Assembly (NCBI RefSeq): GCF_044324875.1
Contig: NZ_CP172185.1
Strand: one strand, 5' to 3'
Origin: Escherichia coli
Lineage (GTDB): Bacteria > Pseudomonadota > Gammaproteobacteria > Enterobacterales > Enterobacteriaceae
Length of the DNA: 64,000 bases
Part shown: one piece after another, positions 40,966 through 53,748 of the stretch
How positions within the stretch are numbered: the stretch's first letter is position 1
Layout: each line of letters begins with the position of its first letter
Program-made: the position numbers and the translations under genes
Notes under the pieces: generated by a model
Told to the model about the DNA's origin: nothing
Seen by the model: the letters and a program-made list of their open reading frames with translations, nothing else
Databases searched by the model: none

Positions 40966-41361
<396 letters not shown>

Positions 41362-41393
41362 TTGGCTTCTGCTCCGGCAGAAAACAATTTGCG

Positions 41394-41421
41394 AAAAAAC
41401 CCGCTTCGGCGGGTTTTTTTA
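41394..41421 (+). terminator. Intrinsic terminator of rplM-rpsI operon
   Basis: aaaaaa-cccgc-ttcg-gcggg-ttttttt. Confidence 0.9.
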
Positions 41422-41515
41422 TGGCCTAAGTCCGAATCCAGCCTCTTTTCCTTCTCACTACAGCATTATTCTCTGTAAACGGTATTTTCCTCGCACTATA
41501 GAAAAGGATATCGCG

Positions 41516-42310
41516 ATGGGATTTTTTAATACATTGTTTAATAAGAAAGAATCATTAACGCTGTCGAATAAATGGGAATTCTTTATTACCACGGTGGAAG
41601 ATAATGTAACGGGCATACGTGTAGATATTGGCGCAATTGAGGACGAAAAATTTGATCGTCTTATCCACACATGGTTTTTACGTGTCCGTTATACTGACTG
41701 TTATGAAAACGGTTTTCCGCAACCTGATGAAACACAGCGTTTAAATCGTATTGAGGACTGGCTTGAGGCGCAGGGTAAAACACTACCGATCTGGCTAGTG
41801 GGTGTGGTTACGCAACAAGGTTCACGCGATTTTGTTTTCCAGTCAGAAAAAGACCTGGACTGGGAAAAGACATTGGATAAATTGTTGGCAGGTGGCCCGG
41901 AGCTCGCTTGCAGCTTTAATGAGAGTAAAAACGACCACGGAAATTACTACCGCCAGTTTTTGTATCCAACCAAATACGACTGGAACTGGATACACGATTC
42001 CCGAGTATGCCGCGGGTTACTGGAGCATGGTGACGATTTGACTCTCCCACGCACCATCGATTATTACGCGACATTGCCGACAGAAACTGCGGCCCACGCC
42101 TTTGTGGAGGACGTGACGAAATTGCCATATGGCATCACGCTGGTGAGCATTCGGATGAACGACCAACAACCGGAGTATATGGCGTCATTGATTAACACTG
42201 ATGCTCCGGAACAATGGCATATGACCGATATCACATGCCAGCTTACCGATTTGGCGGAAAAGCATGGAGGTAGTTTTGATGGCTGGGGCGCACCGATAGC
42301 AACGGCATAA
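41516..42310 (+). CDS. Hypothetical protein, 264 aa; putative DUF695 (N-terminal) + RraB-like (C-terminal) domains; not present at this locus in K-12 as I recall it
   Basis: Long ORF 41285..42310 in track; the upstream part overlaps rpsI and its terminator, so start set at first ATG after the terminator (41516), which has an AAGGA RBS 7 bp upstream. Translation MGFFNTLFNKKESLTLSNKWEFFITTVEDNVTGIRVDIGAIED...LTDLAEKHGGSFDGWGAPIATA. Domain call is from motif resemblance by memory, not from a search. Confidence 0.8.
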   Translation: MGFFNTLFNKKESLTLSNKWEFFITTVEDNVTGIRVDIGAIEDEKFDRLIHTWFLRVRYTDCYENGFPQPDETQRLNRIEDWLEAQGKTLPIWLVGVVTQQGSRDFVFQSEKDLDWEKTLDKLLAGGPELACSFNESKNDHGNYYRQFLYPTKYDWNWIHDSRVCRGLLEHGDDLTLPRTIDYYATLPTETAAHAFVEDVTKLPYGITLVSIRMNDQQPEYMASLINTDAPEQWHMTDITCQLTDLAEKHGGSFDGWGAPIATA

Positions 42311-42578
42311 AGGTTTAAAACAACATTCCCGGTGGGGACTAAGTCAAGCATTTCAGACTAAAGCGCATCTCTTTTTCCCCATTTCCGGCATCGACTCACC
42401 ACAAAGGTCGCAAAATCTGGTAAACTATCATCCAATTTTCTGCCCAAATGTCGGGTATTGCTCATTTTTTGTTTAATTTTCGAACAAAGAGAGTCGTTCC
42501 TTACTGGGTAACACAACTTCTGACTGGCCACCTGGTGGCTGGTAGCAGTAAAAATTCTGACTATACCTGGAGGTTTTC

Positions 42579-43217
42579 ATGGCTGTCGCTGCCAACAAAC
42601 GTTCGGTAATGACGCTGTTTTCCGGTCCTACTGACATCTATAGCCATCAGGTCCGCATTGTGCTGGCTGAGAAAGGTGTAAGTTTCGAGATCGAACACGT
42701 GGAAAAGGACAATCCGCCTCAGGATCTGATTGACCTCAACCCGAATCAGAGCGTTCCGACCCTGGTGGATCGTGAGCTGACCCTGTGGGAATCTCGCATC
42801 ATTATGGAATATCTGGATGAGCGTTTCCCGCATCCGCCACTGATGCCTGTTTACCCGGTAGCTCGCGGTGAAAGCCGTCTGTACATGCATCGCATCGAAA
42901 AAGACTGGTACACGCTGATGAACACCATCATCAACGGTTCAGCTTCTGAAGCAGATGCCGCACGTAAGCAACTGCGCGAAGAACTGCTGGCGATTGCGCC
43001 GGTCTTCGGTCAGAAGCCGTACTTCCTGAGCGATGAGTTCAGCCTGGTCGATTGCTACCTTGCTCCGCTGCTGTGGCGTCTGCCGCAACTGGGTATCGAG
43101 TTCAGCGGCCCGGGTGCGAAAGAGCTGAAAGGCTATATGACCCGCGTCTTTGAGCGTGACTCTTTCCTTGCTTCTTTAACTGAAGCTGAACGTGAAATGC
43201 GTCTGGGCCGGAGTTAA
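42579..43217 (+). CDS. sspA: Stringent starvation protein A
   Basis: ORF track 42579..43217 (212 aa) MAVAANKRSVMTLFSGPTDIYSHQVRIVLAEKGVSFEIEHVEKDNPPQDLIDLNP...; GST-like fold. Confidence 0.97.
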   Translation: MAVAANKRSVMTLFSGPTDIYSHQVRIVLAEKGVSFEIEHVEKDNPPQDLIDLNPNQSVPTLVDRELTLWESRIIMEYLDERFPHPPLMPVYPVARGESRLYMHRIEKDWYTLMNTIINGSASEADAARKQLREELLAIAPVFGQKPYFLSDEFSLVDCYLAPLLWRLPQLGIEFSGPGAKELKGYMTRVFERDSFLASLTEAEREMRLGRS

Positions 43218-46423: not shown

Positions 46424-47317
46424 ATGGCAACGAATTTACGTGGCGTAATGGCCGCACTCCTGACTCCTTTTGATCAACAACAAGCACTGGATAAAGCGAG
46501 TCTGCGTCGCCTGGTTCAGTTCAATATTAAGCAGGGCATCGACGGTTTATACGTGGGTGGTTCTACCGGCGAAGCCTTTGTACAAAGCCTTTCCGAGCGT
46601 GAACAGGTACTGGAAATCGTCGCCGAAGAGGCGAAAGGCAAGATTAAACTCATCGCCCACGTCGGTTGCGTCAGCACTGCTGAAAGCCAACAACTTGCGG
46701 CATCGGCTAAACGTTATGGCTTCGATGCCGTCTCCGCCGTCACGCCGTTCTACTATCCTTTCAGCTTTGAAGAACACTGCGATCACTATCGGGCAATTAT
46801 TGATTCGGCGGATGGTTTGCCGATGGTGGTGTACAACATTCCTGCCCTGAGCGGGGTAAAACTAACCCTGGATCAGATCAACACCCTGGTTACGCTGCCT
46901 GGTGTCGGCGTGCTGAAACAAACCTCTGGCGATCTCTATCAGATGGAGCAGATCCGTCGTGAACATCCGGATCTGGTGCTCTATAACGGTTACGACGAAA
47001 TTTTCGCCTCTGGTCTTCTGGCGGGCGCTGATGGTGGTATCGGTAGTACCTACAACATCATGGGCTGGCGTTATCAGGGTATTGTGAAGGCTCTGAAAGA
47101 AGGCGATATCCAGACCGCGCAGAAGCTGCAAACCGAATGTAATAAAGTCATTGATTTACTGATCAAAACGGGCGTATTCCGCGGCCTGAAAACGGTCCTG
47201 CATTATATGGATGTGGTGTCTGTGCCGCTGTGCCGCAAACCGTTTGGTCCGGTAGATGAAAAATATCTGCCAGAACTGAAGGCGCTGGCCCAGCAGTTGA
47301 TGCAAGAGCGCGGGTGA
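46424..47317 (+). CDS. nanA: N-acetylneuraminate lyase
   Basis: ORF track 46424..47317 (297 aa) [52 protein letters not shown]... Confidence 0.97.
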
Positions 47318-47322
47318 GTTGT

Positions 47323-47357
47323 TTCCCCTCGCTCGCCCCTACCGGGTGAGGGGAAAT
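47323..47357. repeat. G/C-rich imperfect palindrome downstream of nanA (same family as 28647-28690)
   Basis: tttcccctcgctcgcccctaccgggtgaggggaaa; shares cccctcgc...cccct...gggtgagggg with the tldD-aaeR element; possible terminator/attenuator between nanA and nanT. Confidence 0.5.
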
Positions 47358-47425
47358 AAACGCATCTGTACCCTACAATTTTCATACCAAAGCGTGTGGG
47401 CATCGCCCACCGCGGGAGACTCACA

Positions 47426-48916
47426 ATGAGTACTACAACCCAGAATATCCCGTGGTATCGCCATCTCAACCGCGCACAATGGCGGGCATTTTCCGCTGCC
47501 TGGTTGGGATATCTGCTTGACGGTTTTGATTTCGTTTTAATCGCCCTGGTACTCACCGAAGTACAAGGTGAATTCGGGCTGACGACGGTACAGGCAGCAA
47601 GCCTGATCTCCGCAGCCTTTATCTCTCGCTGGTTCGGTGGCCTGATGCTCGGCGCTATGGGTGACCGCTACGGGCGTCGGCTGGCAATGGTCACCAGTAT
47701 CGTTCTCTTCTCGGTCGGGACGCTGGCCTGCGGTTTTGCGCCAGGCTACATCACCATGTTTATCGCGCGTCTGGTCATCGGCATGGAGATGGCGGGTGAA
47801 TACGGTTCCAGCGCTACCTATGTCATTGAAAGCTGGCCAAAACATCTGCGTAACAAAGCCAGTGGTTTTCTGATTTCAGGCTTCTCTGTGGGGGCCGTGG
47901 TTGCCGCTCAGGTCTATAGCCTGGTGGTTCCGGTCTGGGGCTGGCGTGCGCTGTTCTTTATCGGCATTTTGCCAATCATCTTTGCTCTCTGGCTGCGTAA
48001 AAACATCCCGGAAGCGGAAGACTGGAAAGAGAAACATGCAGGCAAAGCACCGGTACGCACAATGGTGGACATTCTCTACCGTGGTGAACATCGCATCGCC
48101 AATATCGTGATGACGCTGGCGGCAGCTACTGCGCTGTGGTTCTGCTTCGCCGGTAACCTGCAAAATGCCGCAATCGTCGCTGTACTCGGGCTGTTATGCG
48201 CCGCAATCTTTATCAGCTTTATGGTACAGAGTACGGGCAAACGCTGGCCAACGGGCGTAATGCTGATGGTGGTCGTGTTGTTTGCTTTCCTCTATTCATG
48301 GCCGATTCAGGCACTGCTGCCAACGTATCTTAAAACTGAACTTGCTTATAACCCGCATACTGTCGCCAATGTGCTGTTCTTTAGTGGCTTTGGTGCGGCG
48401 GTGGGGTGCTGCGTCGGTGGCTTCCTCGGTGACTGGCTGGGAACCCGCAAAGCGTACGTTTGCAGTCTGCTGGCCTCACAGCTGCTGATTATTCCGGTAT
48501 TTGCGATTGGTGGCGCAAACGTCTGGGTGCTCGGTCTGTTACTGTTCTTCCAGCAAATGCTTGGTCAGGGCATCTCCGGGATCTTACCGAAACTGATTGG
48601 CGGTTATTTTGATACCGACCAGCGTGCAGCGGGCCTGGGCTTTACCTACAACGTTGGCGCATTGGGCGGCGCACTGGCCCCAATCCTCGGCGCGTTGATC
48701 GCTCAACGTCTGGATCTGGGGACGGCACTGGGCTCGCTCTCGTTCAGTTTGACGTTTGTGGTGATCCTGCTGATTGGTCTGGATATGCCTTCTCGCGTTC
48801 AGCGTTGGCTGCGCCCGGAAGCGTTGCGTACTCATGACGCTATCGACGGCAAACCATTTAGCGGTGCCGTGCCGTTTGGCAGCGCCAAAAACGATTTAGT
48901 CAAAACCAAAAGTTAA
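47426..48916 (+). CDS. nanT: Sialic acid:H+ symporter NanT (MFS)
   Basis: ORF track 47396..48916; start set at [39 protein letters not shown] (496 aa). Confidence 0.95.
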
Positions 48917-48963
48917 TCCTGTTGCCCGGTCTCTGTACCGGGCCTTTCGCTAAGGGAAGATGT

Positions 48964-49649
48964 ATGTCGTTACTTGCACAACTGGATCAAAAAATCGCTG
49001 CTAACGGTGGCCTGATTGTCTCCTGCCAGCCGGTCCCTGACAGCCCGCTCGATAAACCCGAAATCGTCGCCGCCATGGCATTAGCTGCAGAGCAGGCGGG
49101 TGCGGTCGCCATTCGCATTGAAGGTGTGGCAAATCTGCAAGCCACGCGTGCGGTGGTGAGCGTGCCGATTATCGGGATTGTAAAACGCGATCTGGAGGAT
49201 TCTCCGGTACGCATCACGGCCTATATTGAAGATGTTGATGCGCTGGCGCAGGTGGGCGCGGACATTATCGCGATTGACGGCACCGACCGACCGCGTCCGG
49301 TGCCTGTTGAAACGCTACTGGCACGTATCCACCATCACGGTTTACTGGCGATGACCGACTGCTCAACGCCGGAAGACGGTCTGGCATGCCAAAAGCTGGG
49401 AGCCGAAATTATTGGCACCACGCTTTCTGGCTATACCACACCTGAAACGCCAGAAGAGCCGGATCTGGCGCTGGTGAAAACGTTGAGTGACGCCGGATGT
49501 CGGGTGATTGCCGAAGGGCGTTACAACTCGCCTGCTCAGGCGGCAGATGCGATGCGCCACGGCGCGTGGGCGGTGACGGTCGGTTCTGCTATCACACGTC
49601 TTGAACACATTTGCCAGTGGTACAACACAGCGATGAAAAAGACGGTGCT

Positions 49650-49653
<4 letters not shown>
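48964..49653 (+). CDS. nanE: N-acetylmannosamine-6-phosphate 2-epimerase
   Basis: ORF track 48922..49653; start set at ATG 48964 ([30 protein letters not shown]..., 229 aa). Confidence 0.95.
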
Positions 49654-50986
<1,333 letters not shown>

Positions 50987-51004
50987 AACTTAGTTCGTTT
51001 TAAA

Positions 51005-51031
51005 GATTCTCCAGACAGTGTCTGGAGAATT
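51005..51031. repeat. Palindrome gattctccagac-agt-gtctggagaatt in yhcH/yhcG convergent gap
   Basis: Perfect 11-bp arms (attctccagac / gtctggagaat) around a 3-nt spacer; related to the two palindromes inside yhcG (51761-51834). Confidence 0.7.
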
Positions 51032-51045
51032 CGAAACCGCTGAAA

Positions 51046-52134
51046 TTAACGGCGTCTATAGCCTTCCTCTAGCACCGCCTGTGTTCGAACGAGTTCATCT
51101 GCGAGTCGTTTCTCATCAGGTAGTTGCATCTTATATTCGCTTGCCAGAACGGTGTTAGGCAAACCTGCCAGAGCATAATGCGCTTCGCCGGCTCCTTTCT
51201 CTGCACAGAGAATCAGACCGATGGGCGGATTTTCATCCGGTAGCGTCCAGTGATCTTTGGCGTAGTTGAGATACATATTCATCTGTCCGGCATCGCTATA
51301 GCTGAATTTGCCCACTTTTAGATCGACGATTAGCAGGCAGCATAAACGGCGGTGGAAAAACAGCAGATCGACACGAAACCAGTTATCATCAATGCGTAAC
51401 CTTCGCTGCCGACCAACAAAGGCAAAATCATCCCCAAGTTCCAGCATGAAATCCATCAGGTGGTTGATCAGCGCCTCCTCGAAATCAGATTCTGAATATT
51501 CATCTTTCAATTCCAGAAATTCGAGCACAAAGGGATCGCGTATCGCCTGCTGCGGAAGAATATGCGTCTCGGTAGGAGCGTGTTGTTGCAGCATGGCTGA
51601 TTTGTCATGTGACAGTAGTGTTCGCTCATAAAATTGGGTCGCAATTTGCCGCTCTAGCTGGCGAACAGACCAGCCACAGCGGAGCGTCTCTTTTTCATAA
51701 AAGCTACGAGCGTCAGCGTTTTTAACAGAAAGCAAACGGACGTAAGTGGACCAGGGCCGGGGGAAAGATTTGGCAGACAGCGTCTGCCAAATCTTTCCCG
51801 ATGGGAATTCTGCAGACGGTGTCTGCGGAATTTCAACATGTTGAAAAAAGAGGTAAAAAAGTCTCATTTGGCGCAAGTTTTTTGCAGAGAACCCACGCTT
51901 ATACCTTAGACATAAATCCTTTGATAGTCGCTTGATTAGCTGCGCACCATACGCAGCCCTGGCCTCGCCACCTTGTTCAAATTCGACAATTCGTCGGCCA
52001 ATTTCCCAGTATGTCGCGGTCATCAGCGCGTTAACGCTACGTACCGTTTCCGTCCGGGCGCTATCGACCAGGTGAATAATACCGTCGTGGATTTGCTGGT
52101 AGCCTGTTGAGGTTCTCTCTGAGAGCGATTCCAT
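51046..52134 (-). CDS. yhcG: DUF1016-family putative PD-(D/E)xK nuclease YhcG
   Basis: ORF track 51046..52134 (362 aa) MESLSERTSTGYQQIHDGIIHLVDSARTETVRSVNALMTATYWEIGRRIVEFEQ...; ATG confirmed at 52134; convergent with yhcH. Confidence 0.85.
   Translation of the reverse strand: MESLSERTSTGYQQIHDGIIHLVDSARTETVRSVNALMTATYWEIGRRIVEFEQGGEARAAYGAQLIKRLSKDLCLRYKRGFSAKNLRQMRLFYLFFQHVEIPQTPSAEFPSGKIWQTLSAKSFPRPWSTYVRLLSVKNADARSFYEKETLRCGWSVRQLERQIATQFYERTLLSHDKSAMLQQHAPTETHILPQQAIRDPFVLEFLELKDEYSESDFEEALINHLMDFMLELGDDFAFVGRQRRLRIDDNWFRVDLLFFHRRLCCLLIVDLKVGKFSYSDAGQMNMYLNYAKDHWTLPDENPPIGLILCAEKGAGEAHYALAGLPNTVLASEYKMQLPDEKRLADELVRTQAVLEEGYRRR
51761..51834. repeat. Two adjacent palindromes inside the yhcG coding sequence
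   Basis: P1 51761-51799: gggaaagatttggcagac-agc-gtctgccaaatctttccc (perfect 18-bp arms). P2 51803-51834: gggaattctgcagac-ggt-gtctgcggaatttc (14-bp arms, 2 mismatches). Both share the CAGAC-N3-GTCTG core with the intergenic copy at 51005-51031. Confidence 0.8.
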
Positions 52135-52317
52135 TATCTGTCCCTTTATATGGCGCTGCGTTGAATAATGGAATCAGCTATACGCCGGGCATCTACCGGT
52201 AACAATCCAGATGTGCGTATTACATTGGTTTTCTTCAGATTATGCGAGGCGCTTTCCAGTACGAAAGGAGAATTTCAGCGCCGACTCTTTTCTGAGGAGG
52301 CGGCGCTGGGACAGAGT

Positions 52318-53748
<1,431 letters not shown>

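Follow-up and report, generated by a model that had tools for sequence, protein, structure and literature searches.

The DNA considered here, which we call the window, is a stretch of 64,000 nucleotides (nt) of Escherichia coli (RefSeq assembly GCF_044324875.1, contig NZ_CP172185.1), and the element in question is an open reading frame (ORF) of 795 bp between rpsI and sspA. In the window rpsI ends at 41361 and sspA starts at 42579, with a spacer of 1217 nt between them compared with 394 nt in K-12 MG1655; the ORF follows a leader of 94 nt and encodes a protein with an N-terminal DUF695 domain and a C-terminal RraB-type domain (Table 1). An earlier note, made from the sequence alone, had described a terminator after rpsI, a 1217-bp spacer and a 795-bp ORF at 41516-42310 with its own AAGGA Shine-Dalgarno sequence, and had given K-12 only a short spacer; all of these features lie where it placed them, and the K-12 spacer does lack the segment. 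The same note took the segment for a single-gene islet inserted at this site. We propose the reverse polarity, namely that the ORF is very probably a chromosomal gene ancestral to the Escherichia-Salmonella lineage, resident between rpsI and sspA, and that its presence or absence has come about through loss and not through the insertion of an islet.

Table 1. Features between rpsI and sspA in the window (positions count from the first letter of the window).
Feature	Position	Strand	Remarks
rplM-rpsI intrinsic terminator	41394..41421	+	11-bp perfect stem, TTCG loop, T-run
Left junction block	41422..41439		common to occupied and empty alleles; includes the left 'repeat' copy
Allele-specific segment, ~879 bp	41440..42318	+	leader, ORF and 8-nt trailer
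Shine-Dalgarno sequence AAGGA	41504..41508	+	7 nt before the ATG
ORF, 264 amino acids, intact, ATG start	41516..42310	+	RefSeq annotation 'DUF695 domain-containing protein'
DUF695 domain, residues 18-150	41567..41965	+	Pfam PF05117
RraB-type domain, residues 158-258	41987..42289	+	terminates in the family motif DGWG
Right junction block	42319..42345		shared with empty alleles; includes the right 'repeat' copy
sspA upstream region, conserved	42346..42578	+	intact in both alleles; near-invariant from E. coli to Salmonella

The terminator that precedes the segment consists of the hairpin AAAAAACCCGC-TTCG-GCGGGTTTTTT (41394-41419) followed by further T, folds at -17 kcal/mol (z -3.35) and is unchanged across every occupied and empty locus aligned; given the A-run on its upstream side, it looks bidirectional. 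A full-length Rfam match to the Salmonella small RNA family STnc370 at 41388-41453 on the minus strand (32.5 bits, below the gathering score of 54) was rejected as an artefact driven by this terminator, since the Salmonella locus gives no such match and every weak match overlaps the hairpin. In the locus alignment the sequence AAAAGGA is kept in the leaders of all orthologs.

Within E. coli the ORF is accessory, as had been supposed. The segment is present in 48 of 5,426 complete E. coli genomes (0.9%); the flanks were found in 5,425 of these, 5,377 of which lack the segment. Every carrier has a single chromosomal copy, always in the rpsI-sspA slot and always annotated under the same RefSeq name, and the 48 copies, each an annotated coding sequence (CDS), align end to end at 98.9% or above. 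Among the carriers are IAI39 and CE10, both of sequence type 62 (ST62); CE10 is listed in phylogroup F and IAI39 in 'D' of an older scheme (PMC11537424; PMC4200225). The window is not one of the 48, its protein having D61 where theirs have H61. Its protein is identical to P0015, which is named from E. coli and lies on 203 contigs, and the same proteins recur across hundreds of draft contigs. A 6.8-kb stretch of the window is an exact match to assembly GCA_044083015.1; the mismatch counts for L023 and L025-L027 were indel-offset artefacts and were discarded, and of these comparisons only that of L024, an exact match, carries meaning.

Outside E. coli, proteins that are 81-86% identical occupy the identical slot, in the order degQ-zapG-zapE-rplM-rpsI-[gene]-sspA-sspB. 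An S. enterica contig (L006) and the record of serovar Senftenberg NCTC10384 both read degQ-zapG-zapE-rplM-rpsI-DUF695-sspA-sspB-nanR, dcuC being absent between sspB and nanR in NCTC10384, and the Salmonella protein cluster P0005 has 1,350 members named from many serovars. The same slot is filled in E. whittamii, in Escherichia sp. E1V33 and in strain SCPM-O-B-8794; a 70%-identical homolog also lies between rpsI and sspA, and a 52% homolog directly follows rpsI. The Salmonella ortholog of NCTC10384 (WP_077906546.1) shares the position between rpsI and sspA, 81% of its amino acids and the same low G+C content (GC). It differs in having a GTG start at the position of the E. coli ATG (L006 4001-4795; L035 3501-4295) and is 14 residues shorter in RefSeq (250 amino acids), where it begins at an internal ATG. 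STM3343, a locus tag that may be this ortholog, occurs once in the literature searched, as a table entry 'unknown'. The S. enterica species representative gave no match in a genome scan, and the gene may vary in Salmonella or have been missed by the scan. On a metagenome contig (L012, ERR3179308_29895, 1790-2590) flanks that are ~92% identical to E. coli sspAB accompany a same-slot ORF that is just 70-73% identical to the Escherichia and Salmonella alleles; either this ORF has evolved much faster there or it is a deeply diverged allele.

The divergence of the gene resembles that of its flanks. Between the window and Salmonella the ORF keeps 80.9% nucleotide identity, zapE 77.8% and sspB 82.4%, and the ORF has a synonymous divergence (dS) of 0.96 where sspB has 1.04. 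In the ORF distance matrix the E. coli alleles are followed by the cryptic clades at 85-86% and then by Salmonella at ~81%; the sspAB matrix gives 95-96% for the cryptic clades and 85.5-86.6% for Salmonella. The two have the same topology, and between species the ORF changes at about three times the rate of sspAB. Over the Escherichia-Salmonella distance the ratio of nonsynonymous to synonymous divergence (dN/dS) is 0.11-0.12 for the ORF compared with 0.00-0.07 for its neighbours, and from such comparisons the ORF appears to be an old functional gene under selection. The ORF had also been described as richer in A/T-rich codons than the flanking genes. Its GC is indeed lower, at 0.459 (0.421 in its 5' half) against 0.507-0.544 for zapE, rplM, rpsI, sspA and sspB. 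However, a GC of 0.46-0.47 with the same 5' dip is common to all orthologs, and we therefore regard low GC as a property of the gene and not as a trace of recent import.

The junctions were aligned between the window and four empty-site genomes, and then across eight occupied and four empty loci. Directly after the terminator the K-12 empty site has ATAGCTAAAATCTGAATC, which is homologous to the left block of the window, ATGGCCTAAGTCCGAATC. The corresponding block is ATGGCTAAAGTCCGA(A/T)TC in Salmonella and in E1V33/E. whittamii and ATGGCCTAAGTCCGGATC in the L009/L020 clade, and the K-12 block is closer to the Salmonella form ATGGCTAAAGTCCGAATC, with 15 of 18 positions identical. On the right, the window reads AACAACATTCCCGGT-GGGGACTAAGTC and K-12 has the homologous AACCACATCGCCAATAAGGGACTAAGTC. 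Homology with the empty sites thus reaches 18 nt (left) and ~27 nt (right) inside the ends first assigned to the segment, and the bounds 41422-42345 given in the earlier note were slightly off; the part that truly differs runs from about 41440 to 42318. In the K-12-type empty allele, an unrelated filler of ~53 nt stands in place of these ~879 bp. The clean gap of ~0.9 kb with breakpoints at the repeat, which the islet model had led one to look for, is not what the empty sites contain.

Both copies of the repeat said to bracket the segment do exist, cCTAAGTC at 41425-41432 and aCTAAGTC at 42338-42345, but they are at chance level. CTAAGTC occurs three times in the window against an expectation of 4.0 +/- 2.2, and the extended 10-nt pair, matching at 9 of 10 positions, is one of 13 comparable short direct repeats within 1.3 kb. 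The empty sites already carry a counterpart of the left copy (gctaaaatc or gctaaattc) as well as the right copy (actaagtc), and for this reason the repeat is not a target-site duplication; duplication on insertion and microhomology-mediated insertion were both rejected. Recombination between the two copies was considered as an origin of the empty alleles, and it would not yield the empty alleles observed.

No significant similarity between the filler and the occupied allele emerged from local alignment (p 0.07-0.53), from semi-global alignment (z <= 0, a poor test owing to free end gaps) or from blastn-short on both strands; the idea that it is a degraded remnant of the leader or ORF was accordingly dropped. 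No source for it was detectable in any fetched sequence. The filler is unusually diverse: over 60 nt, the empty sites of different E. coli strains are 91.7-96.7% identical (L001 1740-1799 and its equivalents in L004, L005 and L030). This divergence makes the empty allele look old.

Signs of mobility were sought and not found. As the earlier note had remarked, no transposase or integrase is encoded in the ORF list of the window, and no terminal inverted repeats flank the segment, whose surroundings contain the terminator as their only perfect inverted repeat. The sole close match to a plasmid, NZ_LN868944.1, is a 728-kb record entered in PLSDB as 'plasmid 2' of S. Senftenberg NCTC10384, and it carries core chromosomal genes (degQ, zapE, rplM, rpsI, sspAB and the nan genes). 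Two matches to 'phages', OR851148.1 and OR851009.1 ('Salmonella phage S.Kent 1-2-1'), are unannotated sequences of 2.7-3.5 kb with parts of the ORF. All three are probably mislabelled records, which leaves no genuine copy on a plasmid or phage. The phage-protein library gave no PHROG match below E 0.1, and the PADLOC defence models gave 0 families at E <= 1.

Given the same-slot orthologs, the flank-like divergence and topology and the shared low GC, we believe that the gene was lost or replaced in most E. coli. In the history that we propose, an ancestral gene would have resided between rpsI and sspA throughout the Escherichia-Salmonella lineage. The empty allele of most E. coli would be derived, with ~53 nt of unrelated spacer in place of the ~879 bp that comprise the gene and the greater part of its leader, and a minority, including the lineage of the window and ST62 strains such as IAI39 and CE10, would retain the occupied allele. 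The insertion previously suggested is refuted by the structure of the empty sites together with the synteny in Salmonella and the cryptic clades.

The protein itself is acidic (isoelectric point, pI, 4.69) and contains no hydrophobic run of sufficient length to form a membrane segment. The DUF695 profile matches over its full length (model positions 1-134 of 134, E 1.7e-32). The C-terminal half matches the full RraB model (PF06877, E 1.3e-23), with the profile hidden Markov model and the fold both supporting the assignment. An AlphaFold2 model has a predicted local distance difference test (pLDDT) score of 95.7, and the DUF695 domain forms an alpha/beta sandwich with pLDDT >94. The best fold match is VC0424 of Vibrio cholerae (PDB 1NXI), a structure of the RraB family that covers the C-terminal domain only, at 16% identity; the other matches are generic ferredoxin-like folds only. 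RefSeq already contains this exact protein as well as its orthologs (for example WP_000505558.1 and WP_077906546.1), and both domains are established Pfam families. End-to-end matches come from 1,331 cluster representatives in which the full-length two-domain architecture is kept. Proteins of the TIGR01619/HI0040 type share this DUF695 plus RraB architecture at ~250 amino acids; since the ORF protein scores 18 bits (E 0.002, positions 4-246 of 250) against a curated cut-off of 149.4, it is not a TIGR01619 equivalog. Two-domain members outside the enterobacterial subfamily are at most 33% identical to it, and the searched literature contains no tested function for any two-domain DUF695 plus RraB member.

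RraB is a single-domain protein of ~138 amino acids. With RraB (YjgD), regulator of ribonuclease activity B of E. coli, the ORF protein has in common its C-terminal half, which is acidic (pI 4.57) and closes with the DGWG motif. The ORF is a separate gene at a different locus and not an allele of rraB. RraB is an inhibitor of RNase E that binds the scaffold of the enzyme (residues 694-727) and remodels the degradosome (PMC4435900; PMC10126417). By analogy with RraB, the best model available, we expect the ORF product to be a soluble, acidic two-domain protein without an enzyme-like fold, most likely a protein-binding modulator in which the DUF695 domain would supply a second surface or a sensing function. 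An RNase E-type mechanism is a tentative and rather doubtful extension of the same analogy. We would give not quite an even chance to the alternative that the protein is no regulator of RNase E at all, and that its tandem ferredoxin-like domains bind a small molecule, in the manner of ACT or RAM domains, or some other protein, for example as an inhibitor or immunity-type factor. However, the only specific match in sequence and structure is to the RraB family, and no toxin-like neighbour occurs in any context examined, nor is there a PADLOC match. Those contexts also gave no conserved partner gene, the neighbours being rpsI and sspA in enterobacteria, while distant homologs are surrounded by unrelated housekeeping genes.

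How the gene might be expressed can be suggested from its surroundings. A consensus scan detected neither a promoter of the sigma-70 type in the leader nor a terminator-like site from the ORF to sspA, and the interval 42300-42400 folds no better than shuffled sequence (z -0.84). The two negatives from the scan are weak, because the same scan missed the obvious rpsI terminator on the plus strand. Since neither a promoter nor a terminator was detected, transcription of the ORF would probably start at a weak promoter or come from read-through past the rpsI terminator, and would probably continue into sspAB.

Taking history and function together, we regard this account as probable, with slightly less assurance than the history alone. 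Several observations weigh against it. Simple deletion does not account for the ~53-nt filler at the empty sites. The dS of the ORF to the cryptic clades is 0.62, deeper than the 0.08-0.52 of the flanks, and the gene and its flanks may not have exactly the same history. The scan of species-representative genomes recovered three Escherichia loci only and missed Salmonella, so that the breadth of conservation is not established. On the side of function, no paper in the literature searched mentions DUF695, and the protein is unlike single-domain RraB in its 264 amino acids with an extra DUF695 domain at the N-terminus, besides its low TIGR01619 score. Finally, by the upstream 8.4 kb, the nearest relatives of the window (99.5-99.6%) are all non-carriers.

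The last point suggests that this strain may have regained the gene. We consider it possible, if rather doubtful, that the ancestral gene was lost in the lineage of this strain and returned from an E. coli carrier by homologous recombination through the rplM-rpsI and sspA flanks. While the upstream flank points to non-carriers, the gene is 99.5-99.7% identical to that of ST62-type carriers; the ORF alleles of E. coli differ by only 0.1-0.5% despite a between-species rate about three times that of sspAB; and the wider region is mosaic, the nan genes being 3-10% diverged. Within 4 kb on either side, however, the window is ~1% from carriers and non-carriers alike, and sliding-window comparison delimited no discrete import block around the ORF. 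A recent swap of alleles between the nearest non-carrier, ECA64, and the carrier 2016C-3878 was likewise not demonstrated, the two being ~1% apart throughout, and rplM, rpsI and sspA are too conserved to hold a signal. In the same strains zapE differs by up to 2.6% where the ORF alleles differ by 0.1-0.5% (window against carriers L002 and L029); this shallow coalescence of the occupied allele in E. coli suggests either rarity or spread by recombination. The locus is mosaic, and this strain may hold the gene by retention or by regain through homologous recombination.

A further reading makes both the occupied and the empty allele ancient, a long-lived polymorphism maintained side by side throughout Escherichia and perhaps in Salmonella too, possibly under selection. 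On that reading, the gene would be a second, lineage-restricted regulator of RNA decay of the RraB type, lying between the operon for ribosomal proteins and that for stringent starvation and co-transcribed with both. We think the combination improbable. If it were true, the extraintestinal pathogenic E. coli (ExPEC) carriers of ST62 would differ from other E. coli in control of the degradosome.

It is very unlikely that the ORF is a decaying, functionless leftover on its way to loss everywhere. Such a view could draw on its absence from ~99% of E. coli, on constraint that is weaker than in the neighbours and on the lack of a recognisable promoter, but a dN/dS far under 1 over the Escherichia-Salmonella distance, 48 end-to-end CDS copies, the recurrence of the same proteins in draft assemblies and a very confident structural model all speak for a maintained gene. 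Least credible, with next to nothing left to recommend it, is a recently acquired single-gene islet whose insertion duplicated or used ctaagtc: its rarity in the species, its GC below that of the flanks and the 7/8-nt direct repeat at its nominal ends give it a likeness to islets brought in by insertion sequences (IS), integrases or microhomology, but it lacks their target-site duplication, clean empty site, mobility gene, terminal repeats and phylogenetic incongruence, the empty sites have ~53 nt of their own between both repeat counterparts, and Salmonella and the cryptic Escherichia clades hold orthologs of equally low GC in the same slot with congruent topology.

We conclude that the presence/absence polymorphism at this locus is real but of an ordinary kind, and that the earlier reading had its direction reversed. 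A rare, AT-richer single-gene segment with a short repeat resembles an insertion, yet here it is very probably ancestral, and the common allele of the K-12 reference would be the derived one; the polarity of presence and absence is not readable from one genome and a reference. The locus also offers a lead, in the form of an RraB-like protein, apparently under selection, that is shared by a minority of E. coli lineages, many serovars of Salmonella and cryptic clades of Escherichia, and is encoded directly upstream of sspAB. If the protein modulates RNase E or the expression of sspAB, it would make for a lineage-specific difference in post-transcriptional or starvation control.

Some further observations were made at the locus and around it. 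SI-NP020 (L003, NZ_AP024130.1, 1662-2616) has a shorter empty allele with a spacer of 315 nt, in which the terminator abuts ATCGCCAAAG. Its sspA is 90.6% identical to that of the window, whereas rplM and rpsI are 99.8-100% identical, and the segment looks like an import from a divergent Escherichia lineage with a further-deleted empty allele. The carrier E. coli AR_0013 (L028 5014-6360) has an IS4-family transposase gene between mdh and degS; the gene is peculiar to this carrier, being found neither in the window nor in 2016C-3878 or ECA64, and has no bearing on the ORF. Over the 8 kb downstream, no genome in the collection exceeds 98.2% identity to the window, owing to a nan region that differs by 3-10% from that of all genomes compared. 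This divergence extends over 46500-53000 of the window (nanR/A/T/E/K/Q, a yhcG-like PDDEXK nuclease gene and the edge of gltD) against every complete E. coli compared, whereas the adjacent 34-46 kb is diverged by ~1% or less. Within it, 51500-52000 is ~10% from carriers and ~4% from ECA64, and the whole of 46500-53000 resembles a mosaic made by recombination or else a hypervariable tract.
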